Shown here: piece after piece, positions 4,184-62,633 of the stretch
Position numbering within the stretch: position 1 is the first letter of the stretch
Layout of the letters: each line of letters begins with the position of its first letter
From: Patescibacteria group bacterium
Lineage (GTDB): Bacteria > Patescibacteriota > Patescibacteriia > Patescibacteriales > UBA12465
Length of the DNA: 64,000 nucleotides
Assembly (NCBI GenBank): GCA_041651355.1
Contig: JBAZJK010000001.1
Span: forward strand, 683,888-747,887
Reading direction: 5' to 3'
Notes under the pieces: generated by a model
The model's database searches: none
What the model was told of the DNA's origin: nothing
The model's input: the letters and a program-made list of their open reading frames with translations, nothing else
Made by a program: the position numbers and the translations under genes

Positions 4184-5098
4184 TTACTTACCGCGCTTAG
4201 CTTGTAATTTCTCCCAAACTACTAAAACTGGACTGGCGATGAAAATCGAGCTATAAGTACCGATAAAGATACCGATCGCTAGAGCCAAGGCGAAATCCTT
4301 GATGGTAGCACCGCCAAAAAACAAGATGGCTAATAAAGCTAAGATAGCTGATAAAGAGGTGTTAACGGAACGAGTAATAGTTTGGTTGACGCTGGCGTTA
4401 ACCGTGCCTTCAAAATCTAGGCTACTCTTGGGCAGATTCTCCCTAATACGATCAAAAACGATGATAGTATCGCTGACGCTGTAGCCCAAAACCGTTAAAA
4501 CCGCCGCGATAAAAGGAGTATTTATCTCTATGCCGTAGAAATGTCCTAAGACAGAAAAGACTCCGAGGATAAATAAAACATCATGGATCAAAGCGATAAT
4601 AGCTGCCGCGCCATATTTCCAAGAAGAAACCGGCTTGGACACCTTACGGAAGGCGTAGGATATATAAAGGATAATGACGATTAAGACTATAAAAGCAGAA
4701 TTAAAGGATTTGCTTTTAAGCTCTTGGCCGATCGAAGGACCGACAGAATCAAAGCTTAGCTCCTTGATGCTAGCATCCTTATTATTTTTAACTGCTAAAT
4801 CCTTAAGCATGCTCAATACCTGCTGATGCGCTTCCTCGTTATTTTCTTTAAAACGTAGGATAACTGAAGATTCGGTGGGTTGGATAACAAGATTGTGCAA
4901 ATTAGCATCCTTGAGACCATCCTGGATTTCGGTAATCTTGGGTTGGTAGTTCTTAAACTCTACCTCCATCAAACTACCTCCGGTGAAATCGATCCCGAAG
5001 TTAAGGCCCCAGAAAAACAGGGCACAAATCGAAGCGATGGCCGCCAGGGTAGACAGGGACAAAAAGATTTTTCTCTTTTGAATAATTTTATACACCAT
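4184..5098 (-). CDS. secF: Protein-export membrane protein SecF
   Basis: LNFGIDFTGGSLMEVEF motif and an RND-like 6-TM C-terminus, sitting directly downstream of secD. Confidence 0.85.
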   Translation of the reverse strand: MVYKIIQKRKIFLSLSTLAAIASICALFFWGLNFGIDFTGGSLMEVEFKNYQPKITEIQDGLKDANLHNLVIQPTESSVILRFKENNEEAHQQVLSMLKDLAVKNNKDASIKELSFDSVGPSIGQELKSKSFNSAFIVLIVIILYISYAFRKVSKPVSSWKYGAAAIIALIHDVLFILGVFSVLGHFYGIEINTPFIAAVLTVLGYSVSDTIIVFDRIRENLPKSSLDFEGTVNASVNQTITRSVNTSLSAILALLAILFFGGATIKDFALALAIGIFIGTYSSIFIASPVLVVWEKLQAKRGK

Positions 5099-5120
5099 AT
5101 ATTTCTTATGAATATGCGAT

Positions 5121-8534: not shown

Positions 8535-9941
8535 TTACATTGTTTTGGAAAGTGAAATAAAATAATCGCTCATTCTTTCTGTGGGGACTTCAGTTTGTTC
8601 CCTGGTAAAAAGATTCTTAACCTTGATTACATCGTGATGAATTTCATCGGCGCCAGCGATAATTACGAATTTAACATTTTGGCTAACAGCAAAGTTAAAT
8701 TGGGATTTGAAGGTTGTGTCCTCTAACAAGCAAAGCTCAGCCTTTAAGCCAAGATCACGCAATTGCTTAGCTAAACGCAAATAATAAGAATCGTGGCTAT
8801 TAGTTAATCGAAGAATCAGCACCTCAGCCGTCGTGATTGATTTGACTTTCACGAGTTCAAGCTGCTGTAAGGCGGCAAACAAACGGTCGACGCCAATCGA
8901 GGCGCCAACCGCGGGTAATTCGCTCCCAGTAAATCGGGCTACTAAATCATTGTAGCGACCGCCAGAAAAAACACTGCCAAATTCCGGAGCGTCTACTAAG
9001 ACGCTTTCGAAAACTGGACCGGTGTAATAATCTAGACCGCGAGCGATGGAGAAATCTATTTCAACTGTTCCTTCGGGTACTCCAAAATCTGACAAATAAG
9101 AAATAATTTGTCTCAACTCAGATATACCCTCTTGAGCAATTGAAATTCTGTGGAAGACGGCCTCAGCCTGGTCAAGCTTAATGGAGTTGCTGCCACTAAT
9201 CTCTAAAAAACGAGAAATCCTTGTAATCGCATCCGGCAATAAACCAGGACTTGGATCATATTCGTTCTCCGGAGTCATTTGCAGCTCAGATAAGACTTGA
9301 TTGAAGCCGATTTTAGGAATTTTATCCAAAATTCGCATTACCTCTTTTGTAATATCGTCAGCGGAAACCTGGCCTCTGCCAGACACCCCTATCAACTCTG
9401 CTAAACCGTTTAAGATCTTGCGGTTATTAATACGAATTAAGAAGCGCTTTAAACCTAAAGCGGATAAGGTTTGATAAATAATAGCGATAATTTCTGCATC
9501 TGCCAGCATAAGAGAAGAACCGGCAATGTCGACATCAAACTGATAAAATTGGCGATATCTCCCTTTTTGAGGGGAATCACTACGGAAGACTGGTCCTAAG
9601 ACCATGCGCCGCCACGGTAATTTTACCCCCTCTCTTTTCTTGTCGTTATAAGGATTGGCTGATAAAAAACGGGCGAATGGTACCGTATGATCGAACCTTA
9701 AAGATAAATTATCTTCATTACTACTTCCACGGCTTTTTACCTGGAAAATGTTTTTCGAAGTTTCATCTTCACCGACTAAAACTTTAGAAAATTCTACCAT
9801 AGGCGTCTCAATCGGATTATAACCAAAGGAACGAAAAACTCCATTAATTATTCGCAGCATCTCTTCCCTGGCCAAAAATTCGCTGGTGTTAAAATCCAGA
9901 AACCCGCCAGGCTTTTCTGGTTTGATTTTGTTTGCTTTCAT
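8535..9941 (-). CDS. Histidyl-tRNA synthetase-like paralog (class II aaRS, HisRS family) with a divergent histidine-binding motif
   Basis: Motif 2 QKGRYRQFYQFDVDIAG, motif 3 GGRYNDL, GASIGVDRL, and a C-terminal anticodon-binding domain (VKFVIIAGADEI). It has RFDHT where canonical HisRS has RPEGT. Its stop lies 2 bp upstream of the hutH-like start, so the two are probably co-transcribed. Confidence 0.7.
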   Translation of the reverse strand: MKANKIKPEKPGGFLDFNTSEFLAREEMLRIINGVFRSFGYNPIETPMVEFSKVLVGEDETSKNIFQVKSRGSSNEDNLSLRFDHTVPFARFLSANPYNDKKREGVKLPWRRMVLGPVFRSDSPQKGRYRQFYQFDVDIAGSSLMLADAEIIAIIYQTLSALGLKRFLIRINNRKILNGLAELIGVSGRGQVSADDITKEVMRILDKIPKIGFNQVLSELQMTPENEYDPSPGLLPDAITRISRFLEISGSNSIKLDQAEAVFHRISIAQEGISELRQIISYLSDFGVPEGTVEIDFSIARGLDYYTGPVFESVLVDAPEFGSVFSGGRYNDLVARFTGSELPAVGASIGVDRLFAALQQLELVKVKSITTAEVLILRLTNSHDSYYLRLAKQLRDLGLKAELCLLEDTTFKSQFNFAVSQNVKFVIIAGADEIHHDVIKVKNLFTREQTEVPTERMSDYFISLSKTM

Positions 9942-10095: not shown

Positions 10096-12111
10096 TCAAT
10101 ATACCAAATTATCTAGTAATTGTTCATCAACCAGATAAGGAATGGTGATCTGACCATTGGCTTGATGTTTATTATTCCAAAGTGCGGCTGTTTCCATAGC
10201 GCCTTGACTTCTAGCCCAACTGCGCCGAGCGATTCCACACATGACGTCCCAAGACAGGCTGCTTTTTAAAACTTCATCTACTCTTTGACTGCCATCCAGA
10301 AAAATACCATTGCCTCCATTACTAGATCGTCCGATGCCAACGCCACCGCCGTTAGATAAAACTACCAAAGTCATCCCTCGAGCTATATTACCAGCAAAAC
10401 ATTGGGTAGACATATCAGCTGTCGGTCTACTACCATCGTAAATATTAGCAGTTTCCCGAAATGGTGAATCGGTTCCAGAAACGTCATGATGATCACGTCC
10501 AATCATAATAGGGCCTAAGCGACCATCCCTAACCGCTTGGTTGAAAGCCAAGGCGATATTTATCCGTCCTTCTTCATCAGCATAGAGAATCCTGGCTTTA
10601 GTACCGACTACTAAATCGTTGTTTGCAGCATTAGCAATCCAATGATAATTATCGTAATGAAGAGGGCTTAGGGATGGGTCTATTAAAGACATAGCTATTT
10701 GATCTGTCAAACGAAGATCTTCGTCCTTATGACTAAGACAGACCCAGCGGAAAGGACCAAAACCACGATCGAAGCAAACCGGACCCATGATATCTTCAAC
10801 ATAAGAAGGCCAGATAAAACCATCGTCAGTATTGACTTGGTTTTTGGCGATAGTCTTTTCTCCAGCCTGAAAAATGGAATTCATGAAATTATTACCATAA
10901 TCCCAAAAATGCGCCCCCTTAGCGATTAATCTCTCTATAACTCGGAAATGACGAAACAAAGATCTATTGACTAAAGCGATAAAATCGCTCGGATAATGTT
11001 TGAGCAACTGGCGGCCAGATGCAAAATCTAAACCGGCAGGAGTATAACCACCTTCGTAAACGGCATGGCAAGAAGTTTGATCGGAAAAAAGCTCAAAGAA
11101 AAAATCGTTTTCATCTAAACCCTCTAAAAGATCAACTATATTACCATAATAAGCCAGGGCTAAAGGCCGACCAGCATCCTTACTTTCTTTAGCTTTCTTC
11201 ATGATAACTGACAAATCATCAGAATAATCATCAATAGACTTTTGCTTCAGACGTAACTGAATTCGGCTATAATCGACTTCCGCAATAATGGCTACCCCTC
11301 CGGCAATTTTAACCGCCTTAGACTGGGCACAAGACATCCCCCCGAGTCCGGAAGACACAAAACAAATGCCTTGTAAATTTTTATCTTGACCCAAGCCTAA
11401 ATATTTACGAGCGGCATTTAAAATTGTTATGTAAGTTCCGTGAACAATCCCTTGCGGGCCAATATACATCCATCCGCCAGCTGTCATTTGCCCATAATTG
11501 GAGACACCCAAAGCAGCTAAACGCTTGAATTCGGTGATATTATTCCATTCTCCAACTAACAATCCATTAGTATTTATGACCCGAGGCGCTTGAGGCGAAG
11601 ACGGGAATAGCCCAACCGGATGTCCAGAGCTGACAACCAAGGTTTGGTCTTCTTTCATTACTGATAGATATTTTTTAACTAAAAGATATTGCATCCAGTT
11701 CTGGAATATCTGGCCAGTCTCTCCATAGGTGACCAACTCATAAGGATAAAGCGCTACCCCGAAATCAAGATTGTTATCAATCATGACTTGCAGAGCGCGG
11801 GCAGCTGGTATGCCTTCATACTCATCAATAGGCTTGCCGGCAATTCTACCTTCCGGTCGAAAACGGTAACCGTATATACGACCCATAGTTCGCAATTCTT
11901 TCAAAAACTCGGGAGCAAGAATCGAGTGTAATTCTTCTGGTAAATACCGCAGAGCATTAGCTATTGCTAATTTGGTTCTTTCTGGATCCAATGTTAAACC
12001 ACGATCTGGAGCGCGAAGTTGCCCTGGATCGAATGTCTTAACCGGCGGAAGCTCATTAGATAATTTAATATCCATGGCTTCAAAAACTTGAGGATTTGTT
12101 AAATTTTTCAT
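10096..12111 (-). CDS. hutU: Urocanate hydratase (urocanase), long form of 671 aa with an N-terminal extension of about 90 aa
   Basis: YGQMTAGGWMYIGPQGIVHGTYITI, GLGGMSCAQ, FDQTSCHAV, IGRDHHD and GGGVGIGRS; these are near-diagnostic urocanase motifs. Confidence 0.9.
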   Translation of the reverse strand: MKNLTNPQVFEAMDIKLSNELPPVKTFDPGQLRAPDRGLTLDPERTKLAIANALRYLPEELHSILAPEFLKELRTMGRIYGYRFRPEGRIAGKPIDEYEGIPAARALQVMIDNNLDFGVALYPYELVTYGETGQIFQNWMQYLLVKKYLSVMKEDQTLVVSSGHPVGLFPSSPQAPRVINTNGLLVGEWNNITEFKRLAALGVSNYGQMTAGGWMYIGPQGIVHGTYITILNAARKYLGLGQDKNLQGICFVSSGLGGMSCAQSKAVKIAGGVAIIAEVDYSRIQLRLKQKSIDDYSDDLSVIMKKAKESKDAGRPLALAYYGNIVDLLEGLDENDFFFELFSDQTSCHAVYEGGYTPAGLDFASGRQLLKHYPSDFIALVNRSLFRHFRVIERLIAKGAHFWDYGNNFMNSIFQAGEKTIAKNQVNTDDGFIWPSYVEDIMGPVCFDRGFGPFRWVCLSHKDEDLRLTDQIAMSLIDPSLSPLHYDNYHWIANAANNDLVVGTKARILYADEEGRINIALAFNQAVRDGRLGPIMIGRDHHDVSGTDSPFRETANIYDGSRPTADMSTQCFAGNIARGMTLVVLSNGGGVGIGRSSNGGNGIFLDGSQRVDEVLKSSLSWDVMCGIARRSWARSQGAMETAALWNNKHQANGQITIPYLVDEQLLDNLVY

Positions 12112-16939: not shown

Positions 16940-17983
16940 TCAAGGCTGGGTTTTAACTTTTAGGGAATTAAGCATCAACCGGAATATATTAGGATAAGCC
17001 AGGTTTTTCTCATCTAAAGGGGTATAAGCTAAAACATAAATATTCTCTTCCTTATTATCGGTAAAATAAACGGTCAGGCCATCATCACTCATTACCCCGT
17101 TGCCCCAATCTTTGGCAATCAGCTGGGCCTCCGGTATATCTAGCACGGCAAATTCCTCTTTATACCAAGCGGCGATGCTTTGCGCGTTCAGATTCTTCTG
17201 GACCGACAGTTGGATAAATGATTCGTCGGCCGCGGTAAAGATTACGGCGTCATCTGTCGCTAAAGGTTTTAATGCCCAAATCTTAGGATAAAGGATTTCA
17301 TATTTAGCCAGCGAGTATTTAGCTAAATTAACATTGGCGTCAAGCTTGCCGGTGCTGATCGGGTCATAACCGGCCTGGATCTCGGCTAAATCAGAAAAAC
17401 CATCGGCATCAGTATCTTCTAAGTTAGGGTTAGAACCCAAAATCACCTCTTCTAAATCATTAATGGTATCACTATCGGAGTCTACCACCGGTTGAGTCGA
17501 AGAAGCAATAATATTGCCTTCCCCCTGGAAAACCAAGCTAGAGCTAGCACTAGAAGTCGCGACTTCGGTCGTAATCGTAGCTAAACTAGCCTCATTAATA
17601 TTGGTCGGAATTTCAGCTAAGATCGGATCCGGGGTGACCGCATTATTTATTGGATTACTGTTAATCTTCGGGGCATCTTGATTTTGAGACACAGGTCGAC
17701 TGGTAGCCGCCGGCTTGATCATAAAAGTATAGGCGGCATAAATAATACCACCGACCACCAGCAAGCTACCAACGATAATGAACAGGCCTATTTTTTTGTG
17801 CTTCGACTCTGAATTTATGATTAAGGCGCCGTCAGCCCCAGAGGCATAAGAAGAATTAGCCAAAACACTCTTAGCTGGCATACTATGAATAGAAATATCC
17901 TGATCTAGACGGGCGCTTAGATCCTGCTTCTTATCTTTATCATTTTCTAAATTTTTTTTTGTTTTCTTAGCTTGCAAAAACAT
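16940..17983 (-). CDS. Membrane-anchored protein with C-terminal thrombospondin type-3 (calcium-binding) repeats
   Basis: Cytoplasmic N-terminus, single TM (IGLFIIVGSLLVVGGIIYAAYTF), Ser/Thr/Pro-rich linker, then DSDSDTINDLEEVILGSNPNLEDTDADGFSD. Confidence 0.5.
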   Translation of the reverse strand: MFLQAKKTKKNLENDKDKKQDLSARLDQDISIHSMPAKSVLANSSYASGADGALIINSESKHKKIGLFIIVGSLLVVGGIIYAAYTFMIKPAATSRPVSQNQDAPKINSNPINNAVTPDPILAEIPTNINEASLATITTEVATSSASSSLVFQGEGNIIASSTQPVVDSDSDTINDLEEVILGSNPNLEDTDADGFSDLAEIQAGYDPISTGKLDANVNLAKYSLAKYEILYPKIWALKPLATDDAVIFTAADESFIQLSVQKNLNAQSIAAWYKEEFAVLDIPEAQLIAKDWGNGVMSDDGLTVYFTDNKEENIYVLAYTPLDEKNLAYPNIFRLMLNSLKVKTQP

Positions 17984-17986
17984 ATT

Positions 17987-18178
17987 TTATTTAAAACACA
18001 GGTAAGCTAAACCGGCCATGATCATAAAAGTGATGAGCCCGGCCCATAACCAGCCACGACCTGGAAAGATGGTTTCTCCCGGTTGGGGCATGATGTGCAA
18101 ATTTAGCATTAAATTACGGCTCGGCTTAACGGGCGCCGCACTTTTAAAAGTCTGACCGTTGGCTAAATTGCTTAGCAT
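17987..18178 (-). CDS. Possible small membrane protein (63 aa) between the two TSP3-repeat genes
   Basis: ORF with a C-terminal hydrophobic helix (WLWAGLITFMIMAGLAYL), the same strand and tight spacing as its neighbours. No similarity is recognisable. Confidence 0.25.
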   Translation of the reverse strand: MLSNLANGQTFKSAAPVKPSRNLMLNLHIMPQPGETIFPGRGWLWAGLITFMIMAGLAYLCFK

Positions 18179-18190
18179 AGATAAAAGTCC

Positions 18191-18922
18191 TTATCTCGAT
18201 AGCTTACCTGGACCGTTAGGATTATATCCGCCACGGATTTCCACGCTGTCAGTAAATCCATCGTTATCGCTATCGGACAATAAAGGATTGGTTTGATAAG
18301 TATTCACTTCCTCGCCGTCGCTTAAACCGTCATTATCGGAATCGATCAGGTTCGGGTTGGTACCCAGCTGATTCTCTTGGGTGTCATTTAAACCGTCACT
18401 ATCAGAATCAATCGTGCTCAAATCGGGCACAGTCGGAGTCACCACCACGGTTGAAGTCGGAATATCACTGATTATATCTGAGGTGCTGGCCATGTCTGCC
18501 GGAGTCGAACTAGGTGTTTCGGATACTGACGGTGAATTAGTAACCGGAGGGGTCGGCGCACTTGTTTCAATCGGAGAAGGTTCTGGCTCGGAATTCACCA
18601 AAGATGACTGAGCTGTAAATTTGGTATAGGCAAAATAGGCCCCGGCTCCCAAAATGCCAAGGATGATAAAAATAATAACTAATTTTTTAAGTACCTTGCC
18701 GCCTGAGTGTTTAGGGGCGTCTTCCTCTTGATGGGCTACTGCACCTAAACCGACAGTCTGGGCTTCAATTTGAGGCCGAGCCTGAGAAAAGACGCCGACA
18801 CTGTCCACACGGTCGGTCTCGGAAAAGATATCATCAACCTCTTTCTTAGGAGGAACCGATCCCGAGGCTGGAGTGGGGTTCACGCCGTTAGCTGGCGGGG
18901 TGTTAGTGATCTCATTAAACAT
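18191..18922 (-). CDS. Paralogous membrane-anchored TSP3-repeat protein
   Basis: Same architecture as 16940..17983, with TM KLVIIFIILGILGAGAYFAY and C-terminal DSDSDGLNDTQENQLGTNPNLIDSDNDGLSDGEE...SDSDNDGFTDSVEIRGGYNP. Confidence 0.5.
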   Translation of the reverse strand: MFNEITNTPPANGVNPTPASGSVPPKKEVDDIFSETDRVDSVGVFSQARPQIEAQTVGLGAVAHQEEDAPKHSGGKVLKKLVIIFIILGILGAGAYFAYTKFTAQSSLVNSEPEPSPIETSAPTPPVTNSPSVSETPSSTPADMASTSDIISDIPTSTVVVTPTVPDLSTIDSDSDGLNDTQENQLGTNPNLIDSDNDGLSDGEEVNTYQTNPLLSDSDNDGFTDSVEIRGGYNPNGPGKLSR

Positions 18923-19260
18923 ATTTTTTGTTATATAAAAATACCTAAAATTAATCCTTTCATCAGGCTAATATAAAACTAATTACAGTATAACATTTTT
19001 TTAATTTTATCACTATACACAGAACGATAAAAATACAAAACATTGTTATTTCAGGATTTTGGGGCTATTATGATAATAGAAAAGATTTAAATTTTTAAAC
19101 AAGAAAATCTAAATCGTTCCTCTTGACAAAATCAACAAAAAAAACTAATATAACAAGTCTATCTAAAAATAGGCTGAAAGGAGCCATAAAGGCCCAAATA
19201 ACCCAGAACATTAACAAAAAAATAATAAAAACCATGCTAAACCCTTTAATTCAGAAACCC

Positions 19261-21135
19261 ATGAAAAAGTTGTTCTACTTTTTTCTGCTTTTTGGCTGGC
19301 TGTTGATTAATTTCCGGCCGGCTGTTTCCCAGAGCATCACGATGCAAGAAAACTGGAATGTCGCCCTCACCGCCGGAGAAATCTGCCAGGATCTGCAGGT
19401 TATGAACGGCTATGCTTACACCTTAATTTACCGAGGCTACTGGGTAAATTTTGATCATTACCGCGTTGAAAAACGCGATGCCAGTGGCAATGTTGTCGCC
19501 TCAGTCAATAAGGATGATGTCAAATATGACATGAATATGTTGTGTTATGATAATAAAGTCTTACTAACGAGCATGATAGATAATGGCCACTTAACCGGAG
19601 TAAAACTCTATAGCGATAACCTAAGTTTGCTAAAAGACACTACCTGGACTGGTCTAGGAGTCTACCAAAGCCTTTCTTCTAGATTAGATTATTACGGGAA
19701 TTATATCTGGTGGACGACCGAGGGTTGTAATCTGGCAACTATGGTAAAAATTTACAAGATAAACCCAAATACTTTAGCCAGCGTAAATGATTTAACCATT
19801 GACTCAACTAATTTCTCTGGTCTTCTAAAAGAATATGATCTTTTTAATTCATACGGAGGATCTTATTACTTAAATCCTATAATATATAGTTCGGGACCGA
19901 CAACTTCTCAGAAAATCAAATTTGATGGCAACCTGCAAATATTGAATGCTGACCCACCAGAAAACTTAATCTTTTTGATGGATTTATTCGGTTACAATAG
20001 TTCGATATACTACCTAGGTGGTATAAATTCTGGAAGCGGAGGAATTAAACTAATCAAAAAGGATACGAATAATTTTACTAACGCGTGGGAAGTGTCGTTA
20101 ACCAATATAAGCACTTATAGGCGCCCTGGCATACACCCAAATAACAACGTTTTCCTTTTTGCCGACGGGGATGGCACGGTTAGAAAAATTAACCCAAACA
20201 CCGGCAGCAATTTAGGATGGGTCAACGTTGCCAGCCTCTCGCCGATAGATGACGTAGCTCACTATTTCGGGAAGATTAACTGCGGCCAGGATTATCCTTT
20301 CATGATAATCGGGCCAACCGGGACCAACCCCAGCGAACCATTCAAAATCTACCTCCTCGATCCAGCCAGCCTCGGAACGCTGTCGATTAAGACTATGAAC
20401 AATATTAGTCCTAATTACAAAATCATAGAAGCTGGAGATAAGATCTACATTATCAACGACCGAATCATTGAATTATCGGTTTTAGTCTGGCCAAGCATCA
20501 ACCTGGTTGACCTTGGTAGCGGGCAGGTTATTAACCCTGGCAACTACATTATCAACCTTAGCACGCCCAATGTCCCGGACACGGTCATCTTCAACAGCAA
20601 TGGAGACTTTGGTATCAAGAACGTTAGCGGTAGCTCAAAAACCATCAAATGCAAAAAGGTGATACTGAACCAAGTCAATGGCGCCAGTAACTGCTTTGTC
20701 TGGGATACGCTCTATAACTCTTCCGTTTCTATCTCGGGACCGCTGATAATAGCTTCAGACAGCATCTTTAGCGGCTTTCGATCTCTTTACAGCTGGAATA
20801 ATCATTTAGGTTGGACTTCTATCCGTTATGTCTTCTTCAATCAGGACGACCCGACAGATTCTACCTGGTACCAAGTAACCTATGACATCGTCACCGGACT
20901 GGAAGAAAATCAAGCCACAAGCTTAAAAGTCTATCCTAATCCGGTTAAAGATTATCTCTATTTGGATAACGCCCTTAATCCTGTAGTAGAAATCTTTGAT
21001 GCCCTGGGCAACCTGGTGTTGACTGCCAATGCTACTCGCCTGGATCTTTCCACTCTCCCTAGCGGCCTTTACCTTTGCCGGATTAAACAAAACGACAATG
21101 GCAAAGTAGAAGTAAGGAAATTTCTTAAGCAATAA
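19261..21135 (+). CDS. Secreted protein with a C-terminal T9SS-type (Por_Secre_tail-like) sorting domain; the ORF track starts it at 19123
   Basis: Signal peptide MKKLFYFFLLFGWLLINFRPAVSQ. The last about 75 aa read KVYPNPVKDYLYLD...VEIFDALGNLV...LDLSTLPSGLYLCRIKQNDNGKVEVRKFLKQ. Confidence 0.55.
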   Translation: MKKLFYFFLLFGWLLINFRPAVSQSITMQENWNVALTAGEICQDLQVMNGYAYTLIYRGYWVNFDHYRVEKRDASGNVVASVNKDDVKYDMNMLCYDNKVLLTSMIDNGHLTGVKLYSDNLSLLKDTTWTGLGVYQSLSSRLDYYGNYIWWTTEGCNLATMVKIYKINPNTLASVNDLTIDSTNFSGLLKEYDLFNSYGGSYYLNPIIYSSGPTTSQKIKFDGNLQILNADPPENLIFLMDLFGYNSSIYYLGGINSGSGGIKLIKKDTNNFTNAWEVSLTNISTYRRPGIHPNNNVFLFADGDGTVRKINPNTGSNLGWVNVASLSPIDDVAHYFGKINCGQDYPFMIIGPTGTNPSEPFKIYLLDPASLGTLSIKTMNNISPNYKIIEAGDKIYIINDRIIELSVLVWPSINLVDLGSGQVINPGNYIINLSTPNVPDTVIFNSNGDFGIKNVSGSSKTIKCKKVILNQVNGASNCFVWDTLYNSSVSISGPLIIASDSIFSGFRSLYSWNNHLGWTSIRYVFFNQDDPTDSTWYQVTYDIVTGLEENQATSLKVYPNPVKDYLYLDNALNPVVEIFDALGNLVLTANATRLDLSTLPSGLYLCRIKQNDNGKVEVRKFLKQ

Positions 21136-21524: not shown

Positions 21525-24500
21525 TTATACTGGGCCTTGGTTGCACATCGAGGGGTTATCATGCGGGAAACAAAACTCATAGCTGGTTTTATGACAGCAA
21601 AGATAGCCGGTTTCGCAATATTCATAATTCCCGCAATTCGGCAATTTGCATTGCTTATTGCTAGTGCAAACCTTGCCTTCGGGACAACCATCGTCTCCGG
21701 TGCCAGTGCCGCACAAACCGCCACAACCGTCGGCTCCGCACTGTTTATTAGTACAATTCCTTTGACAGCATTGACCATTCTTGCAAATCTGCCCAGGCGG
21801 AGTTTCGCAAACGCCACAAGATCCGCCGCAGCCATCTGGGCCGCATTGCTTATTAGTACAATTCGGGCAACAACCTTCTCTTTCACAACCATCAACCACG
21901 TTATTATTGCAATTTTTCCAACCGACTGCACAGGTAAACACTGAATTATTAAATACCTGATGGGGATACAAGCATGTCCCATCCGCCCCGGTTGGATTAT
22001 CAAACTGGCAATTGCTTGCACATTTTAGGGTTAAGCCTCCATAGGGCGCAACCGACCAAAAATTAAAATCTTTGCAGGTCTTGCCGCCAAAATCACACTG
22101 CCCGTTAGTAACATCGCAATCGCAAACTTCGCTAATTTGATTAATAATACCGTCACCACAAGTGGCCCCGGGGGGTGTACTACCGCCAGCGGCTTGTCCG
22201 CAATCTTCCGGGGCATTGATAGGAGTTTCTAAAGGAAGGCCGCTGCTATAATCTATAGTTTCACATAAGCCATCACCTTTAAACCCGCCGCCCTTAAGAG
22301 GCGAAGAGAACACGCAATAAGAACCGTTTTTTATCGGATACACAAAATCAGAATTTGAATCACAAGAATACTGTCTGGAAATACTGCTGTTAGCCGGCCA
22401 ATCGCTAATAAGAGGCACGGAACGGGTCGTTGAGGCAATGCCGTCGCAATCCTCAAAACCATCATTATAATAACCACCCTTCCCCTCAGTGTTCGGATAA
22501 CCCTTCACCCCGTCGCCGCAAAAACTATTAATCTTCAAACTAAAAGATTTACTACTAGCGGTCTTAAAATCATTGGTAGCTGTAATCGTCACGTCATATG
22601 AACCAATATCACCGATAGTAATATTCGGAACCGCAGTATTATTATGTATATAATAACGATTTGAATCAATCTCTCCGGGGTTATTTATGGCCGCATAAGC
22701 TTCCTTATCAACGAATAAACTAGAAGAGCCAAACAAACCGCTTAACAATCTCATAAACCACGATTTTTTAGCTACTGTATTAGTATTTTTATCTTTAGAA
22801 ACCTGACTATAGTTGTTATCAAGTATTAAAGCATTACTAGAGGGCAAGCCAATGGCGGTATAGGAAATTGTATAATCACCTTGTAACCTATTACCAATAA
22901 AACAAGCATAAGGGCGGCCAACCCTGGCTTCTGCTGGACAATTAAAATCAAGAATTGGAGGGGTGACTACTATATTAAACTTGATTTTTTTAGAAACTCC
23001 ACCAGGGCCACCAACAGATAATAAATAAACTGTAGTTGTGTTGGATAAGAAGGGACCGTTAGGATAACTTCCAGTGCTTAAAGACTTTAAGTCATTTCTA
23101 TTAGACTTCATTTTTATCTCATATTTATTCTCGCCCAACCTAGTAGACGACAAAAGAGCCGGGTCAAAATCACCTAAATTTCTCCCGCCGCCAGTTTCGC
23201 GTGTTAAAGTTTTTGATAAGCTACCATCTCCAGTATAAATAAAGGAGTATTCTAGATTGCTATTCGGCTTGAGCACGTGCGTGATATCTTCGGCCTCGAG
23301 AAGGACTTGAGATTCAGAGATCTTAATCGGTATAGTGGTGGTGGTCATGGTGCCATTACCATCATTAACGGAAAAACTGAAGTGATAGTTGCCCGGATCA
23401 CCGGCCTTAGCTGCGTGCAATTTGATCTGGTTAGGATTATTAGTCATTTGCATCACTGGCATATTATCCCAGGACCAATCATCGGTAGGTACAAAATTAA
23501 AAGTCAAAGGGTTGTTTTCAGCATCAAAAACTTTGATGAAACCGTTAAATTCCTGGCCGCTAATACCGTTTAACTGATAATCAACTATCTTAGGCGGGGT
23601 ATTGGCAGCGCTGGTATTATTAATAATGGCATCAGCGCATCTAAACTTGGATAAAGCGTTGCCAGAGGTGTTATATTCATCCGGACTTTCCATACCGGCG
23701 CATAAAGTATAGGCTGAGCCATTACTGTCAGTAGAGTAATAGATAACTCGACTCATAGCTGGAAACTTGAGGTGCTTCCCGTCGGATGTCTTTTCAAAAA
23801 AAGTGTTATTATTCTTATTCCAACAAGTAGCCGCCTCAAAGCCTGGGCAATAGCCCATGGAGTCGATGGGGTCACTAAGCGTACTTAAACTTAAAGCCGG
23901 CAAGAGCACTTCGCGCCAACTAGGCCAAGTTGAAACTGTCTTGTGTTTTACGAAAGTGCCAGCATCTAAGACCGGGAAACGCTTATTGGCCGTTCGGTAA
24001 TTCGCTAAAGCTGCATCTAATTCTGACAAACGAGCCACCCGTTCAATATCTCTCGTTATTTTAGCTTTCAGGCTGGAACAAAAAACGCCGACTGAACAGT
24101 CAGTATCCGAATTACACTTTGAATCATTCTGAGGAATGCATTTATTGCGATAATCGCTGGCATCAGCGCTGCATTTATAACCAGTGGCACAATCTTTATC
24201 AGAATTACAGGGTACGGAACCAATATTGCAATTGCCTTCCAAAGAAGCCGAAGGGAAATTCTCATTAAACTTCCAATGGGAAACGATACTCCCTAAAACA
24301 TCGGAAGTTTGGGTATTAGCGGTTTGATTATATGAGATCAGATAAATATTAGTATATATGGTGGTGCCGATAACATTGGTCGCGTTTACATAAACTGTCC
24401 GGCCATCGCGGATTGCTTCATAGCCATCAACCGTCAAGGCTTGGGGGGAGCCTTTGAAGCCCTGCTCTTTATACCAGCGGGAAATCGAATAATGATGAGG

Positions 24501-24632
24501 ATTAGGTAGCACTCGGACCGCAATGGCGTCGGAGCTGTCTTGCTGGGCTCTAGTTAGCGGAGAAAAAAATAATAGGCTACCGAAAATAAAACCCAAAGCA
24601 AGAAAAAAAATTATAAATTTATGTTTTGACAT
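21525..24632 (-). CDS. Giant secreted cysteine-rich protein D (about 1,035 aa from the signal-peptide Met; the ORF track extends to 24689)
   Basis: Signal peptide MSKHKFIIFFLALGFIFGSLLFFSPLTRAQ. Contains CGDGVKGYP...EDCDG and CGDGIINQISEVCDCD (DUF4215-like). The C-terminus has tandem NCTNKQCG[PA]DGCGG[SL]CG modules and many Cys. Confidence 0.7.
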   Translation of the reverse strand: MSKHKFIIFFLALGFIFGSLLFFSPLTRAQQDSSDAIAVRVLPNPHHYSISRWYKEQGFKGSPQALTVDGYEAIRDGRTVYVNATNVIGTTIYTNIYLISYNQTANTQTSDVLGSIVSHWKFNENFPSASLEGNCNIGSVPCNSDKDCATGYKCSADASDYRNKCIPQNDSKCNSDTDCSVGVFCSSLKAKITRDIERVARLSELDAALANYRTANKRFPVLDAGTFVKHKTVSTWPSWREVLLPALSLSTLSDPIDSMGYCPGFEAATCWNKNNNTFFEKTSDGKHLKFPAMSRVIYYSTDSNGSAYTLCAGMESPDEYNTSGNALSKFRCADAIINNTSAANTPPKIVDYQLNGISGQEFNGFIKVFDAENNPLTFNFVPTDDWSWDNMPVMQMTNNPNQIKLHAAKAGDPGNYHFSFSVNDGNGTMTTTTIPIKISESQVLLEAEDITHVLKPNSNLEYSFIYTGDGSLSKTLTRETGGGRNLGDFDPALLSSTRLGENKYEIKMKSNRNDLKSLSTGSYPNGPFLSNTTTVYLLSVGGPGGVSKKIKFNIVVTPPILDFNCPAEARVGRPYACFIGNRLQGDYTISYTAIGLPSSNALILDNNYSQVSKDKNTNTVAKKSWFMRLLSGLFGSSSLFVDKEAYAAINNPGEIDSNRYYIHNNTAVPNITIGDIGSYDVTITATNDFKTASSKSFSLKINSFCGDGVKGYPNTEGKGGYYNDGFEDCDGIASTTRSVPLISDWPANSSISRQYSCDSNSDFVYPIKNGSYCVFSSPLKGGGFKGDGLCETIDYSSGLPLETPINAPEDCGQAAGGSTPPGATCGDGIINQISEVCDCDVTNGQCDFGGKTCKDFNFWSVAPYGGLTLKCASNCQFDNPTGADGTCLYPHQVFNNSVFTCAVGWKNCNNNVVDGCEREGCCPNCTNKQCGPDGCGGSCGVCETPPGQICKNGQCCQRNCTNKQCGADGCGGLCGTGTGDDGCPEGKVCTSNKQCKLPNCGNYEYCETGYLCCHKTSYEFCFPHDNPSMCNQGPV

Positions 24633-24651
24633 ATTTGAAATGATGCTAATT

Positions 24652-27600
24652 TTATCGTAAACCTCCGCCTCCGGCCTGCTCATATTCACAGGTATCCCAA
24701 TCTAGAGTATTTTTATTAAACCAATTACTCTTACAACTATATGAACAGTTAGAAAGACTGCAACTACTATCATTATATATCGGGGGCTTGGTAGCGGATA
24801 GATCCCATGACGTACAGGTGGTACCGTTGAAACTTATACAAGGGACAGAAAATACAGGGCTAGTACAAAAATTTACGTGATTAAAATTAGTATAACCCTT
24901 TGTCTGGTAAAAAGATTGGTATTCCGTGCTGCCGCAAGCGACATCTTTATATAGCCTACAATCTGAGCCACAGGTGAAACTGCCCTTCCCGGGGCCATCG
25001 CACTGTTCGTTGCCATTAATCACGCCATCGCCACAGCGTTCACAAACACCGCTATTGCAATTATAACTTCCAGGGCAAGTTTGCCCGCAGTCACCACAAT
25101 TTGTCTTATCGTTGCCCTGGACATTCGTTTCACATCCATCTTTAGCGCCAGTACAATCTTTATAGGGAGCATTACAACTATAATAACAAGCATTCAAAGG
25201 ACAAGTGCTGTTATTATAGACTGGGGGCAGCGTGCTTGAATACTGCCAACTGCCTGCCGGGCAATTATTGCTAATGTTATATTTACCATTTTCACAATAA
25301 ACTTTAAAAACCACGGCTGAAGACCCGCAAAAATTCATGCTAGACCAATTACTATAACCATTAGAAGACCAATAAGTCTGATATCCAGGACTAGTACAAG
25401 CAACTTGTTGATAAACTTTACAAGTCTCGTTGTCGCAGTATAAACCTCCGCCAGGATCAGTACCATCGCATTCTTCATTACCGTTCTTCACGCCATCGCC
25501 GCATCTCTGGCAGCTGCCGGCTATACATTGATATGACCCCGAACAAGTAGAATTAGGGCCGGTACAAGCACCACAATGATTTTCATCACTACTTAGGTCA
25601 ACCTCGCAAGTATCGATATCCTGCCCGTTACAATTACCTTTGCCAGCCTTACAATTATATTCGCATTGCTTATAGGCATTGCAAACGCCATAAGGATCGG
25701 GAGAAAAAACAGGATTTTGAGTTGGCCCCCAAACACTACAATAAGTCTGGCCTCCTTGGACAGCTGACCCGCTACAAATCTGAGTGTAAGTGCCACAGAA
25801 AAAATTTATATTATTTAAATTAGAGTAACCGGAATCTGCGCAAGACATAGTCCTAACTATTTTACAATCTAAATTACAGGACAAGGACGGAGTTTCGCTC
25901 TTAAAATTGGGGCTGGAATTATAATCGCATTGTTCTGACCCAGTCACAAAACCATCGCCGCAACTACCCTCCTTACATACTTTATTGATTGGATCCCATT
26001 CATAGCCTGGACTACAAGCACAGGAACCGCTCTGGCAAAAACCATGGCTACCAAAACTACCATTGTTACATTTATTACCGCACGTGCCGCAATTTAGCAG
26101 GTCATGCTGAAGATCTACGCAAACACCGCTACATTCGCCAGAGGAACAAGCGCAGGATCCATTAACACACTGGCTCAAAGTCGGACAAGCGTTATTACAT
26201 GCGCCGCAGTGGCTGTTGTTAGAGGCGGTATTTATTTCACAACCATTAGCAGTATTTTCGTCACAATCACGGTAACTCCCGGAACAATCGCAAGATTTGC
26301 TGGGCCAAGTGCCAAGACAATCATAGTTCTTACCTGTATCGCAAGCTTGGCCACAGGCGCCGCAGTTGCTAAAATTGCTCAGACTAGTCTGACAACCGAC
26401 ATCGGTGCCACATTTGCCAAAAGGTTCATTCGGATTGCATTTAAACCGGCAAGTAGTTTCTGATCCTTGGATGTTATATTCGGTCACCAAATCTTTAGGC
26501 GGGTTAGCCTCCCAGGCGCCACAAGCATTATTAGCGCCATTAGCGCCGGTGCATTTAATGTTATATCCATTCACAGAATTAAAAACATTATAACCGGCCG
26601 GAAGGGCGGGACAAGAATAGAAATAATTTCCATATTTACAATTTTCCGTACAGCCAGAACTCGCATTATTATTACCAGAACCAAAATCACATTGTTCCGG
26701 ACTAGTTACCAGGCCGTTGCCACAGATAGGAGCTGAGCATGAAGCGTTGCTACTGCCCGCCCCAGACCCAAAACAAGTCCAAATATACTTGCCTCCAGAA
26801 GGAGTGACCGCTGAAGCGCTCCCGCTGGCACAGAGTCCTGAGGTAGGCGTAGAAGTAAGCGGCAGGTTATGGGCCTCACCGCACACTCCGCTAGACCGAC
26901 GAGTCGCCGAACAATTGACTGGGCTACCGTTATTGCCATCACAACTCCAATTCCAGCCGGCAGAGTTGGAAACAAAATCTTTGACGGTCCCTACACCACA
27001 GTTGCCCGCATCATAATAAGTCAGGCTAGTTAAATCCTTGCCATTGTTAGCCCCGCAAACCGGAGTTACTTTACAATCGCTCCACAGACAAGCATCACAA
27101 GTTTTTTTGCCAGAAAACCCACTCCAAACACAATCCTGAGGCTGAGGCCAAGCTCCGCTAGAATCTTGTTCACACTGCTCACGGCCTTCCAGTTGCTTAT
27201 TACCACAAGCCTGAGAACCTATATTGCAATTCCCTAGATGACAACCCGCTTCACAATTAGTTGTTCCTGAGTATAAACCGAGATTGCAATTGAAAGATCC
27301 CGAGCCGTCACAAGCTTCAGGACCGTTAGTAATTCCATCGCCGCAAGATTCGGCTGCTTGGCAAGCATTCCAAGCCCGGCAACCATCAGTTTCGCTGCTG
27401 CTAACGCAAGTCTGCTGCCCCCTATAACTACTGCCTGATAAAATACAGGCTTTCGAATTATTATCGCAAATCTCATTATTACCCGGCTCTATCAAGCCAT
27501 TACCGCATTTATTAAGATTGCCGAGATCAAGAGCGATCGGCTCAGATTTATTACTCTCGACTCCATTCGCTCCAATAGCGCTCAGGGCAAAATAATGGAT

Positions 27601-28008
27601 TTTAGGACTCATCTGGCTATAATCAAATTCGATATTAGAAGCCTTGAGTTGCGAATCATATGACTCGCTATAGACGCCCGACTCTACCCCGTGATACAAG
27701 CGATAGAATTGGGTGCTGTCGTTATTTGGCGTCCAGAAAAAGTTGATCGTCTTAGAACCAGCCGCTAAAGCCGCGCTCAAGCCCAAAGGAGGCAGGGCAT
27801 TCTTCTTAACTAGATTCATCCTACCGCTATTTAGCAAGGCTTGGATTTCGGCATCGCTCTCCTTATAGAAATCAGAAAAAGTCCTTTGGATGACTAAAAA
27901 TTCCAAACCGAGGATAAAGGTAAATACTAATAACAAGATTAGCTTTAAATTATGCGGCAACATCGGCTTGGTTTTCTTTTTCCCAGCCGTACTTTTTTTG
28001 GAAGCCAT
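24652..28008 (-). CDS. Giant secreted cysteine-rich protein C (1,118 aa): N-terminal TM, an FN3-like domain, then at least six CG[ND]G....E.CD repeats in about 150-aa tandem modules
   Basis: TM LKLILLLVFTFILGLEFLVI. Repeats CGNGLIEPGNNEICD, CGDGITNGPEACDG, CGNGLVTSPEQCDFG, CGDGFVTGSEQCDY, CGDGVKNGNEECDG and CGDGVINGNEQCDG. Three long modules each end in a Cys-rich knot. Confidence 0.7.
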   Translation of the reverse strand: MASKKSTAGKKKTKPMLPHNLKLILLLVFTFILGLEFLVIQRTFSDFYKESDAEIQALLNSGRMNLVKKNALPPLGLSAALAAGSKTINFFWTPNNDSTQFYRLYHGVESGVYSESYDSQLKASNIEFDYSQMSPKIHYFALSAIGANGVESNKSEPIALDLGNLNKCGNGLIEPGNNEICDNNSKACILSGSSYRGQQTCVSSSETDGCRAWNACQAAESCGDGITNGPEACDGSGSFNCNLGLYSGTTNCEAGCHLGNCNIGSQACGNKQLEGREQCEQDSSGAWPQPQDCVWSGFSGKKTCDACLWSDCKVTPVCGANNGKDLTSLTYYDAGNCGVGTVKDFVSNSAGWNWSCDGNNGSPVNCSATRRSSGVCGEAHNLPLTSTPTSGLCASGSASAVTPSGGKYIWTCFGSGAGSSNASCSAPICGNGLVTSPEQCDFGSGNNNASSGCTENCKYGNYFYSCPALPAGYNVFNSVNGYNIKCTGANGANNACGAWEANPPKDLVTEYNIQGSETTCRFKCNPNEPFGKCGTDVGCQTSLSNFSNCGACGQACDTGKNYDCLGTWPSKSCDCSGSYRDCDENTANGCEINTASNNSHCGACNNACPTLSQCVNGSCACSSGECSGVCVDLQHDLLNCGTCGNKCNNGSFGSHGFCQSGSCACSPGYEWDPINKVCKEGSCGDGFVTGSEQCDYNSSPNFKSETPSLSCNLDCKIVRTMSCADSGYSNLNNINFFCGTYTQICSGSAVQGGQTYCSVWGPTQNPVFSPDPYGVCNAYKQCEYNCKAGKGNCNGQDIDTCEVDLSSDENHCGACTGPNSTCSGSYQCIAGSCQRCGDGVKNGNEECDGTDPGGGLYCDNETCKVYQQVACTSPGYQTYWSSNGYSNWSSMNFCGSSAVVFKVYCENGKYNISNNCPAGSWQYSSTLPPVYNNSTCPLNACYYSCNAPYKDCTGAKDGCETNVQGNDKTNCGDCGQTCPGSYNCNSGVCERCGDGVINGNEQCDGPGKGSFTCGSDCRLYKDVACGSTEYQSFYQTKGYTNFNHVNFCTSPVFSVPCISFNGTTCTSWDLSATKPPIYNDSSCSLSNCSYSCKSNWFNKNTLDWDTCEYEQAGGGGLR

Positions 28009-28033
28009 ATATAATATAAAAATTAAACGCTAA

Positions 28034-31000
28034 TTAGCCGCCAGCTCCGAAACCCAAGGGCACTAGAGGTGGGCGCATATCAGTCGGAGTCACTTCGGCC
28101 GGGTCGGATAATTCACTCTCTTGGTTTTTATTGGTTAAAGCCGTTATCCTAAAAGAATATAACTGCTTGTCGCTAAGACCGGTAATAGTATATATACAGA
28201 CATAATCTAATCCGCTTTCCACACAATTATCAGACGCTAACACCCGCTTATTACTTTGAGAGGCTCCGGAAATACCATAATAAATCTTATAGGTACTAAC
28301 GCTAGTCGACTGGTCAACCGCTCTGATAGAACGCCATTGCAATTCGACCGTACCACCAATCTTTTTATCAGTAGCGCTAACTATCGTCACAATCTTCGGC
28401 TTAGCGGCCCTAAAGAAATATGATTCCTTCAAAACATTAAAGATGCACTGGCCATAAGAACCGCAAGCATCACCGCTATTAGCTCCCGTGGGGCAAGGCT
28501 CGCCGCCAACGCTGCAGATGAGGGCGCTATTTTGTCCCCTGGTCACCGGATCTTCGTTAATAGCCGGTAAATCATCGGCCGTACCTGGTTGTCCGGAATC
28601 ACGGCAATAATAGAATTTATAATTAAAGTTATTACAAGCGCCGCCAGCATCACAATTAGAATCATCTAACCAAGGACTCCAAATTCCCGAAGCTGGCACT
28701 GATGGCCAAGGATTCTCGCACACAAACACATAAACTGGGGCGGAACCAATAGCGCCGTCCCCGGCGGTGATTACTGACTTCATATCTACTTCGGCAGTAA
28801 CAGAAGTGCTGTCATCAGTCACTCCGGTCTTAGCTCGCAGCAAAGTCTTATTCTCAGCAGTCCCCCAATTAATCCCCGCTACTTGGTCGACCACATCAGC
28901 ATCATCTACGCCCCAAATCCAATCCCAATCATATTCAGATAACGGATTCAAATATTGGCCATCTTTACTTAACGCATAGGCGCTAAACGCCTTATCGCTA
29001 TCTCGTTTAGAATCAAAACTAGAATTAGTCGAATCAGAATCATTTTCGTTCAGATCATTATTGGTCGTCTGGAACAGATATGAAGAGGGAGAGACTTGGA
29101 CGTGATCAACCGTGCAGATGCCAGCGTCTGCTCCCTGCGAAGACATAGTCCGGAAAACGGAAATATATGAATTAACGTAATTTATCTTGTTGAAGGAAAT
29201 ATCCTGTCCCTCGATCGTCGTACCCCCACCCAGATTCAAACCAGCACCGTTCAAACCGGTCGCCCAATAGCTAAGGACGCCGCTATCGCTATGCAAGAAT
29301 TGATCACCTTTGACAACTATATAATATACGGTGTTAGGGTTTAAAAGCTTCTGGGGGCTAAAAATAAGGGTATCACTAGCAGATTTTTCATTGCTGACTA
29401 AACCAGGAATAGAACAATACACCTTGTCATTATTATTTCCTGGATTAGTGAAAGCGGCTAAACTGGTCTGTCTAGAAAAGACTCGGGAAATATTTCGCCC
29501 AACATAAAATACCTTATCCAGGATCCGGGCTAAGAAATTTTTAGATTTAGGTTGTTCTAACAAACTGTTATCAGCTAAGAAAGTTCCGGAGGGACAAGAT
29601 GACCCCGGGGCACGCTCCTCTAAAAGAAGCACGTTACCGGTAAAACTATTAACATCCATCGCCTGGTTGAAAGTAACTTTAATCAAGGCGTTACGGCAGA
29701 CATTTTCAGCGAGCTCAGCTGGAGTGGTCGAGGCAGTTTTAACCTCTGGCCTGGTTCGACAGCAGGAATTAATATCACAAGCGACATTGTCAGAACCGCC
29801 GCAATGTTCATCTTCAGAGCAACCGCAACATAGGCCGCGGCCAGCTCCGGAACAAGGGGCTTGATCAGCCTCGCATTGTAGTTTTAAATTTGGTTCTCCG
29901 GTGTTGATTCCGGCGCAAACGTCAGTAGCAGCGCCAACCTGACAGCAACAAGCACCGCAATCGCTAGCCCCCGCTCCGCCGACGCCGCCATTTTCAAGGA
30001 AACAACCGAAAGGCTGAGGGCAAGCGAAAGCATTACAACCGCTGGCCGTCAGATTAGAGCAAGTCATGCCTACGCCACCCGGACTACAGCTAGTCTGACA
30101 TTTATCCTGGCTCAAATAGCTACCCGTCTTATTAGCCGACGAACAATCAGGACAAGTATAATAAGCGCAATAACCGATATCAGCACCTGTTTCTATCCTC
30201 TCCTCGCCTTTACAGACATTATTACTAAAATCCCAACAACAGCTGGCGTCCATCAAACAATCATTTTCCACGCTTATTGCGGCACAATGGCTTGACCCAG
30301 GATTATCCTGGCAAGCCTGACCGCAAACCTCTGTATTTTCATATAAACCATAGGCTAAAGGAGTATTAAGGCCACATTGGCTGGGATTAGCTTGGTCACA
30401 ATCATAATAAGAACAATAGCCATAATAAGTATCTGTACTGTTCTCACTCACCCGGCCGCCACTCACATTAACGCCACGGCAAGCGCCGCCACTAGCGCCG
30501 TCGATACAGCAAGAGGCATGGCTGGCGCACAATCCATTATTCGAAGATAGGATATCGCAATCAGCGCAATAGCCTTCAGGAAATTCTGGATCGCCGACTT
30601 CGCAATATTGCCCGCTATGTCCAGAACAGTTACAAGCAGCATCCCAATCTGCCTGATTGCCACCAGGCGTCTTACAGCCAGTACATTTACCCAGACCGCT
30701 GTTTTTATCTTTAGCTGGATTAGTGTCAGAGCCGCAAGCGCCGCCGCAAGTCAAGCCGGCACAGCAATCCTGGGCCGCTTGTTCAACCCGACAACAGCAT
30801 TGACAACTAGGACTTTCATAGCATTTATTATCCGTAGCATCACAGCTGGAACCGCCAGGACAATCAACTGGCTTGGCACAGACACCAACACTGCCGCTAG
30901 TATTAAAAGCAGCGCATTCAAAACCATCGGCACAACTGATACAAGAAGTACCATTTTTATTGTCTCTATATTTATTATTACCAAGATTAATCCAGCCTGT

Positions 31001-58497: not shown

Positions 58498-59978
<1,481 letters not shown>

Positions 59979-62461: not shown

Positions 62462-62532
62462 CGGGGTGTAGTATACCGGTAGTACGCATGCATGGGGTGC
62501 ATGTAGACCGGGTTCAATTCCCGGCACCCCGA
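62462..62532 (+). tRNA. tRNA-Pro (anticodon GGG)
   Basis: Manual fold gives acceptor CGGGGTG/CACCCCG, anticodon stem CATGC/GCATG, loop ATGGGGT and T loop TTCAATT. Confidence 0.7.
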
Positions 62533-62546
62533 CAAATAGTCGCAAG

Positions 62547-62619: not shown

Positions 62620-62633
62620 CAGAATCTAAAATA

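Follow-up and report, generated by a model that had tools for sequence, protein, structure and literature searches.

A type IX secretion-type C-terminal domain on a predicted beta-propeller protein native to a Patescibacteria genome: probable old acquisition of a two-domain module from Bacteroidota

In Bacteroidota, the outer-membrane type IX secretion system (T9SS) translocon recognises the C-terminal domain (CTD), or tail, of its cargo proteins from the periplasm. The T9SS has been reported only from the Fibrobacteres-Chlorobi-Bacteroidetes (FCB) superphylum (PMC11205867), and it has been demonstrated by mutagenesis that secretion through this system in Porphyromonas gingivalis needs a glycine in the Lb3b4 loop and a lysine in the last strand (beta7) of the CTD (PMC11285876). 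Bacteria of the Patescibacteria, or candidate phyla radiation (CPR), have been proposed to lack an outer membrane (PMC12102498). The present study concerns a T9SS-type CTD encoded in the genome of such an organism. The gene in question (19261..21135, + strand), referred to below as the CTD gene, is located in a 64,000-nucleotide stretch of a Patescibacteria group bacterium genome (assembly GCA_041651355.1, contig JBAZJK010000001.1, positions 683,888 to 747,887), hereafter designated the window, to which all coordinates refer. Its 624-residue product (NCBI MFA5163588.1) is composed of a signal peptide, a predicted eight-bladed beta-propeller, an immunoglobulin (Ig)-like domain and a T9SS type-A CTD, and, as part of the interpretation favoured below, is probably a chimera in which a lineage-specific propeller is combined with a C-terminal two-domain module of ~200 residues.

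The original prediction, made from the sequence alone, had placed a T9SS-type C-terminal sorting domain at the end of this open reading frame (ORF), and this assignment proved to be right. The C-terminus of the product reads ...KVYPNPVKDYLYLD...EIFDALGNLV...LPSGLYLCRIKQNDNGKVEVRKFLKQ, precisely as had been quoted, and searches with the two relevant family models are both significant: PF18962 (Por_Secre_tail) matches residues 557-624 with 42.2 bits in the whole protein and 48.3 bits in the isolated tail (gathering score 27), and TIGR04183 matches over model positions 1-72/72 with 48.3 bits against a cut-off of 23 (E 7e-13). The domain, which spans residues 547-624 (20899..21132, + strand) when the short linker TGLEENQATS is included, runs to the last residue, i.e., it occupies the extreme C-terminus of a protein that begins with a signal peptide. 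Furthermore, a profile of five orthologous tails matches solved T9SS CTDs (7pzj, a lipase, 3.8e-9; 8glk_D, 4.9e-8; 8glj_D, 4.5e-6). In an AlphaFold model of residues 409-624, which is based on 24 sequences and has a mean predicted local distance difference test score (pLDDT) of 81.8, the CTD is predicted to form a compact, seven-stranded Ig-like beta-sandwich with pLDDT values of 85-97 over most of the domain. This modelled domain superimposes on 8glk_D, the CTD of NucA within the T9SS translocon, with a template modelling score (TM-score) of 0.74, a root-mean-square deviation (rmsd) of 2.1 A and 27% identity. The two recognition residues are also present: Gly583, within the Lb3b4 motif IFDALGNLV (IFDMNGRRV in RgpB), and Lys620, within the C-terminal strand RKFLKQ, are invariant in the CPR clade described below. 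The identity of the CTD is confirmed far beyond chance. As a domain it is an ordinary member of TIGR04183/PF18962, already annotated as such by the NCBI pipeline, in which the 100% identical product MFA5163588.1 bears the title 'MAG: T9SS type A sorting domain-containing protein [Patescibacteria group bacterium]'. No paper discussing T9SS CTDs in CPR/Patescibacteria was found in our literature searches.

What is new is that the CTD makes up one half of a ~200-residue module, in which it is preceded by an unnamed Ig/PapD-like beta-sandwich, here called domain X (residues ~409-546; 20485..20898, + strand), which no Pfam or NCBIfam model covers. An exhaustive profile search returned 56,909 matches at E<1e-3, and 1,088 when the threshold was E<1e-10. 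The best of these cover profile positions ~455-627, i.e., domain X together with the CTD and not the CTD alone; the matching proteins are ~240, ~370 or ~515 residues long, with one, two or three matching stretches. A search with a CTD-only profile in a database of 5.8 billion proteins gave just 44 short candidates. The module proteins with a named source, which are a minority of the matches, are all from Bacteroidota (Bacteroidales, Salinivirgaceae, 'Bacteroidetes bacterium', Flavobacteriales, Winogradskyella, Xanthomarina, Brumimicrobium and Flavobacterium), and are mostly titled 'T9SS type A sorting domain-containing protein'. Domain X of the CTD protein carries the motif KCKK...N.F.W...Y...F..F...Y...G.T.IRYVFF...DS.WY and is modelled at pLDDT 87-98, its best single-domain fold match being the N-terminal domain of PorA (6kjk; TM-score 0.68, rmsd 4.1 A over 143 columns). 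In the related sequences P0025-P0169 this domain of ~110 residues reads KNxS..K.VK.KK...N.FCW..CY...F.G.Y...G.S.IRYVFFD..NP.DS; it stands before a T9SS CTD in over 1,000 representative proteins, and is also encountered after PKD, GEVED or Omp28 domains.

The modules of CPR and Bacteroidota type are homologous and align end to end (alignment A3). In the CPR clade, conservation is 86-100% at the columns that are most conserved in 190 Bacteroidota-type sequences, except for the cysteine pair of the FCW..CY motif, for which it is 0.00 as against 0.90 and 0.89 in the Bacteroidota-type set. The CPR modules have a single origin: in a neighbour-joining tree built from 198 modules, one clade, nested four nodes in from the midpoint root, unites all seven full-length proteins of CPR with a short protein, P0024. 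P0024 (237 residues) consists of a signal peptide, domain X and a CTD; it possesses a family-like signal peptide and the loop deletion of the CPR-type CTD, and could be an unfused form of the CPR family. The simplest account of these data would be one acquisition of the module from Bacteroidota, fusion or insertion of the propeller, and subsequent vertical descent, and we infer that the direction of transfer was from Bacteroidota to CPR. Lateral transfer from a Bacteroidota host or neighbour had been among the explanations originally put forward, and it is supported by the exclusively Bacteroidota named relatives and by the single CPR clade, which has since diverged to 47% identity, with the amendment that the transferred unit is larger (the CTD plus a domain of ~110 residues) and the event older than had been implied.

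The CTD gene is a native resident of its genome. It is located on one 881,714-bp contig, on which the tyrosyl-tRNA synthetase (TyrRS; MFA5163584.1) and GyrA (MFA5163609.1; 52441..55023) are likewise labelled 'Patescibacteria group bacterium', and a complete bacterial 16S rRNA gene is present in the same window at 58498..59976, 37 kb from the CTD gene. The GC content of the window is even (0.40-0.47), and a check of tetranucleotide composition found the CTD gene to be typical, its profile falling at the 43rd percentile among windows of the same size. Furthermore, a 47%-identical orthologue is present in the metagenome-assembled genome (MAG) Candidatus Falkowbacteria MAG_39_6 from Lac Pavin, Falkowbacteria being within the Parcubacteria/Patescibacteria group. 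The impression that the genome otherwise resembles Patescibacteria is borne out by this orthologue and by the NCBI labels on the CTD protein, TyrRS and GyrA. The gene content of the window is typical of a small genome, and includes GyrA, RuvB, an AddA-type helicase, TyrRS, the tryptophanyl-tRNA synthetase (TrpRS), ClpP, RelA/SpoT, MscL and a prepilin peptidase, with FtsA encoded in the ~1.4 kb past one window end.

The full-length CTD family is rare, and limited to a single lineage. In a set of 5.8 billion clustered proteins, the CTD protein has only four other full-length relatives (77, 53, 48 and 47% identity), all of which carry a signal peptide and PF18962. Two further members, P0022 and the more distant P0023 (280 bits), emerged from the exhaustive search of 1.84 billion representatives; the gene for P0023 is found in another, housekeeping context (S2, EF-Ts, SOD). 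When scanned, P0023 and P0024 also exceed the cut-offs of the CTD models. In a scan of genome contigs (alignment A1), the family was carried by one GTDB species representative only, i.e., the Falkowbacteria MAG. The gene is old and maintained, and is under purifying selection: all recovered members of the family, which comprise at least eight distinct sequences, have an intact ORF even though synonymous divergence is saturated, and the ratio of nonsynonymous to synonymous substitution rates (dN/dS) of the CTD is ~0.25-0.31, a rough value given that dS is saturated between distant members. In distant pairs, the CTD is 31-47% identical compared to 47-55% for the rest of the protein.

Several other explanations of this gene merit consideration. 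A misbinned or chimeric contig, as had been suggested at the outset, is refuted: misbinning and chimerism are excluded because one 882-kb contig holds both the CTD gene and, 37 kb away, the 16S rRNA gene, and because the CTD gene is typical in its composition and recurs in the same order across independent assemblies. Indeed, both junctions are identical or syntenic across six independent assemblies from different samples (43-100% protein identity). The sole point in favour of a Bacteroidota fragment joined to, or binned with, a CPR genome is that, a priori, T9SS CTDs would be expected in Bacteroidota/FCB, and we give such an artefact practically no credence. It is also very improbable that the tail is a decaying relic of a recent transfer, non-functional and drifting. 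The lower conservation of the CTD relative to the rest of the protein and the loss of the domain X cysteine pair from the CPR clade would fit such a relic, but the intact ORFs in at least eight distinct family sequences despite saturated synonymous sites, the conservation of all key CTD columns, a dN/dS below 1 and the fact that all copies exceed the model thresholds would not. Transfer of the whole gene, propeller included, from an unsampled Bacteroidota/FCB donor, as opposed to transfer of the module alone and its fusion to a CPR propeller, is unlikely, though it deserves more weight than either of the former. Among 150 listed matches (all at least 88 bits) from the search of 1.84 billion representatives, the propeller is covered by family members alone, and no non-family protein covers it among 5.8 billion clustered proteins, both of which argue against a foreign origin of this part. 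In favour of such an origin, the CTD gene is the sole + strand gene in a long - strand run, as might be expected of an insertion, the signal peptide of P0024 resembles that of the full-length family (~9/16 positions by eye), and the signal peptide ends in A-x-A followed by Gln, reminiscent of the 'Q-rule' that has been reported as Bacteroidetes-specific and, there, dependent on glutaminyl cyclase (PMC5837995, PMC10653852). The Gln at position +1 was, however, rejected as a sign of foreign origin, as it is found in all four clear signal peptides of the window, three of them in other proteins. These are encoded by the CTD gene, 24632..21525 (-), 57858..56950 (-) and 60777..61295 (+), with cuts after PAVS, LTRA, YAVA and NLEA, respectively; the sample comprises four proteins with cut sites assigned by eye, and the orthologues of the CTD protein are alike in this respect.

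A further possibility is that the tail is a working recognition signal, serving either an unrecognised CPR export or attachment machinery, or, in this presumed epibiont, display of the CTD for docking onto T9SS surface components (the PorV shuttle or the PorU/PorZ attachment complex) of a Bacteroidota host cell. We consider this improbable. An unrecognised export or anchoring route had also been raised in the original prediction, and the gene content of the 64 kb speaks neither for nor against it. Both motifs required in P. gingivalis (PMC11285876) are invariant in the CPR clade despite a CTD identity of 31-47%, yet these residues also belong to the core or turns of the beta-sandwich, and folding alone may account for their conservation. 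That the module has its nearest named relatives exclusively in Bacteroidota would fit a physical association with such hosts, and the gene is retained in a surface-protein cluster of a type thought to mediate host contact; the T9SS, however, recognises CTDs from the periplasmic side rather than from outside. In addition, CTDs are often incompatible even across Bacteroidota species (PMC11285876), and a single CTD family occurs in the 64 kb and all related loci, compared to the many cargoes of genomes with a sorting system. To the scenario in which a CPR epibiont captured a T9SS cargo module from its host and kept the CTD surface in order to engage PorV/PorU/PorZ-type components of that host, or an undiscovered single-membrane attachment route, we assign slightly less weight still. 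If true, the CTD would serve as a marker of which host is used, and a secretion signal would have been put to a new purpose in bacteria that are not diderm.

The interpretation that we favour, as reasonably probable, is that of an old lateral acquisition from Bacteroidota, in which the protein is exported by the Sec pathway and its tail has been kept for a structural or adhesive function and not as a T9SS signal. Given that the T9SS is reported only from the FCB superphylum and that Patescibacteria are proposed to be devoid of an outer membrane, the tail would be unable to act as it does in Bacteroidota. No T9SS or outer-membrane family (including Bam, Lpt and Lpx) was found among the ~40 annotated ORFs of the window, which represents ~7% of the ~882-kb genome, and no second CTD was detected in the window or in loci L001-L007 (~7% of the genome) using a hidden Markov model (HMM) built on CPR tails alone. 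SecD/SecF (4184..6734) and signal peptidase I (LepB, 39327..39887) are encoded within the window. In the proposed sequence of events, the two-domain module of a Bacteroidota T9SS cargo family would have been acquired once, long ago, by a Falkowbacteria-like lineage that is expected to be single-membraned and to lack the T9SS. The CTD protein is most likely exported through SecYEG/SecDF and cut by signal peptidase I, and the tail would not be removed on maturation but would serve, as a folded beta-sandwich, in a structural, spacer or adhesive capacity. Probable partners of the protein are the giant cysteine-rich, T4SS-pilin-domain and TSP3-repeat surface proteins of the conserved neighbouring cluster, and its variable propeller face probably binds a ligand or host.

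Several points weigh against this interpretation. The contig of P0024, which is 1.1 kb long, with 31% GC and without informative flanks, does not point to a donor or intermediate. Abundance, the named matches only and a crude midpoint-rooted neighbour-joining tree are the basis for the direction of transfer, and the absence of T9SS components from the ~882-kb genome is inferred from 64 kb of it. Furthermore, no LPXTG motif, lipobox or C-terminal transmembrane segment is evident in the CTD protein, and its retention at the surface is a guess. Finally, the invariance in the CPR clade of the Lb3b4 Gly and the C-terminal Lys is not required by purely structural reuse, and such strict conservation would be compatible with a tail that something continues to recognise.

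With regard to the remainder of the protein, the Sec-type signal peptide (19261..19332, + strand; MKKLFYFFLLFGWLLINFRPAVS, with a predicted signal peptidase I cut before Gln24) was assigned by eye and by a crude hydrophobicity screen. It exhibits an MKK n-region, a hydrophobic core and A-x-S/A followed by Gln, traits that are kept across all orthologues. The N-terminal body (residues ~25-408; 19333..20484, + strand), for which an eight-bladed beta-propeller is predicted on the basis of the AlphaFold model and Foldseek, is modelled as all-beta, with block pLDDT values mostly of 75-92, falling to 37-66 (loops) across residues ~181-290. It has no Pfam match, and its best Foldseek matches in the PDB are BamB and tetrathionate hydrolase (E ~1e-9, TM-score on the target 0.6-0.67, 10-14% identity). 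Within this body, residues ~91-330 (19531..20250, + strand) form a mosaic, highly divergent segment when compared to the closest orthologue, P0009 (L007). Amino-acid identity in this segment is ~49%, with a proportion of synonymous differences (pS) of 0.5-1.0, compared to 93-100% identity in most 30-codon windows of its flanks (80% at 361-390; pS 0-0.35). The segment has the appearance of a recombinational exchange of a cassette-like piece. A diversity-generating retroelement was considered as the source of this variation and rejected, as the synonymous sites are saturated too. Exchange of this kind is typically seen where a surface faces a ligand or host and experiences diversifying pressure.

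Start calls for the CTD gene differ between gene callers, which return products of 597, 624 and 633 residues, the 597-residue form, on a Logan contig, beginning with MQENW. An alternative start exists at 19234 (MLNPLIQKP...), and the nine codons that precede the MKK start (MLNPLIQKP, 19234..19260) do not differ between the window, P0009 and the 53%-identical P0010 (loci L007 and L003, respectively, for the latter two). Either translation truly starts at 19234, or this stretch has been conserved as an untranslated or regulatory element. Upstream of the CTD gene, a promoter-like site, TTGACA-17-TAATAT (19123..19151, + strand), lies in the 340-bp divergent intergenic region and agrees with the consensus at 10/12 positions; it is a candidate promoter by this consensus match alone.

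The CTD gene is situated beside a run of giant surface proteins, as had correctly been pointed out, and this linkage is conserved among related assemblies. The gene order is ClpP, TyrRS, a 347-residue TSP3 protein, a 63-residue protein, a 243-residue TSP3 protein and the CTD gene, which is convergent with genes for proteins of 104 and ~1050 residues, followed by those for a ~1120-residue protein and an 1816-residue T4SS_pilin giant. The same order is found in the assemblies SRR8542065, SRR29243427, ERZ27247363/JGI 3300029288, ERR7015357 and ERZ795055, and in the Lac Pavin Falkowbacteria MAG the CTD gene is relocated yet remains within the same cluster. A locus without the CTD gene, i.e., an 'empty' site, was searched for and none was found. 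The fact that linkage to the giant surface-protein cluster is kept even after rearrangement suggests that the CTD protein and this cluster act together at the cell surface. Four very large proteins of the cluster, all secreted (1054, 1118, 1816 and 894 residues; 21525..36156, - strand) are conserved with the CTD gene in all related assemblies. The 1054- and 1118-residue proteins are conspicuously cysteine-rich, with GDG..NG.E.CD-type repeats and, in the latter, a DUF4215 match, and those of 1816 and 894 residues possess an N-terminal T4SS_pilin (PF18895) domain and Big_5. On the other side, the 347- and 243-residue proteins (16940..18922, - strand) each exhibit a single transmembrane segment or signal anchor, Ser/Thr/Pro-rich linkers and bacterial TSP3 calcium-binding repeats; a conserved 63-residue membrane protein is encoded between them, and the TSP3 pair always adjoins the CTD gene.

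Two features of the wider window may be mentioned in passing. The 16S rRNA gene is not followed by a 23S or 5S rRNA gene in the next 4 kb, which instead contain small ORFs, a TrpRS-like gene (PF00579, 61363..62376) and a cluster of three tRNA genes (62462..62704); the rRNA operon is unlinked or split. Two genes resembling that of histidyl-tRNA synthetase (PF13393) are present within the 64 kb (8535..9941 and 37966..39318, both - strand), one of which adjoins a histidine-degradation pair, comprising a Lyase_aromatic gene of histidine ammonia-lyase type (6874..8532) and urocanase (10096..12111), a histidine-catabolic module that is unusual for so small a genome.

For most CPR lineages, the hosts and the mechanisms of attachment to them are unknown. 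The occurrence of a conserved, Bacteroidota-matching module on a surface protein, in a cluster presumed to mediate contact between cells, represents a testable hint that a Falkowbacteria-like lineage may have lived with Bacteroidales-type bacteria. Furthermore, a match to a T9SS CTD model alone does not equate to secretion by the T9SS, a point of relevance to automatic annotation and to the prediction of secretomes. The analysis also exposes an unnamed yet abundant Bacteroidota domain that always precedes the CTD. Should the tail still be recognised by some machinery, CTD-dependent sorting would extend beyond the diderm bacteria of the FCB superphylum.

When compared to known systems, the predicted fold of residues ~25-408 is akin to that of the eight-bladed propellers of the BamB/pyrroloquinoline quinone (PQQ) type, but with only 10-14% identity, no Pfam match and low confidence in several blades the likeness is one of fold only and carries no functional implication. 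Domain X similarly resembles the PorA N-terminal domain (6kjk) and PapD/Ig-like adhesins in its fold, and PorA is likewise a CTD-bearing T9SS cargo, although at 12% identity to 6kjk the domain is a generic Ig-like sandwich whose homology to PorA is not established. With the type-A CTDs of Bacteroidota, such as those of Flavobacterium johnsoniae NucA (8glk_D) and P. gingivalis RgpB, the tail described here has in common its extreme C-terminal position behind a Sec signal peptide, its ~70-residue beta-sandwich with the PNP, G, L..G.Y and K..K signature, the Lb3b4 Gly and beta7 Lys motifs and HMM scores above the cut-offs. It differs from them in that the loop before the L..G.Y strand is 4-6 residues shorter, in that the tail is found on one protein family only in the sequence available, and in that the host is a member of the Patescibacteria with a genome of at least 0.88 Mb, in which neither a T9SS nor an outer membrane is expected. 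It is this host and the likely absence of the cognate machinery that are unusual, the CTD likely being an orphan that was acquired laterally. The most complete likeness is to an unnamed family of the Bacteroidales and Salinivirgaceae (for example, MDD2562998.1 and MDO9510496.1), the members of which are ~240, ~370 or ~515 residues long and are composed of a signal peptide, one to three domain X stretches and a CTD. The last ~200 residues of the CPR proteins align fully with this family (88-150 bits with the CPR profile, 25-32% identity), with the shared conserved columns N454, F479, W481, F506, Y510, G517, Y523, F525 and D533, whereas the CPR proteins are without the FCW..CY cysteine pair, form a clade of their own and add a propeller of ~385 residues between the signal peptide and the module.

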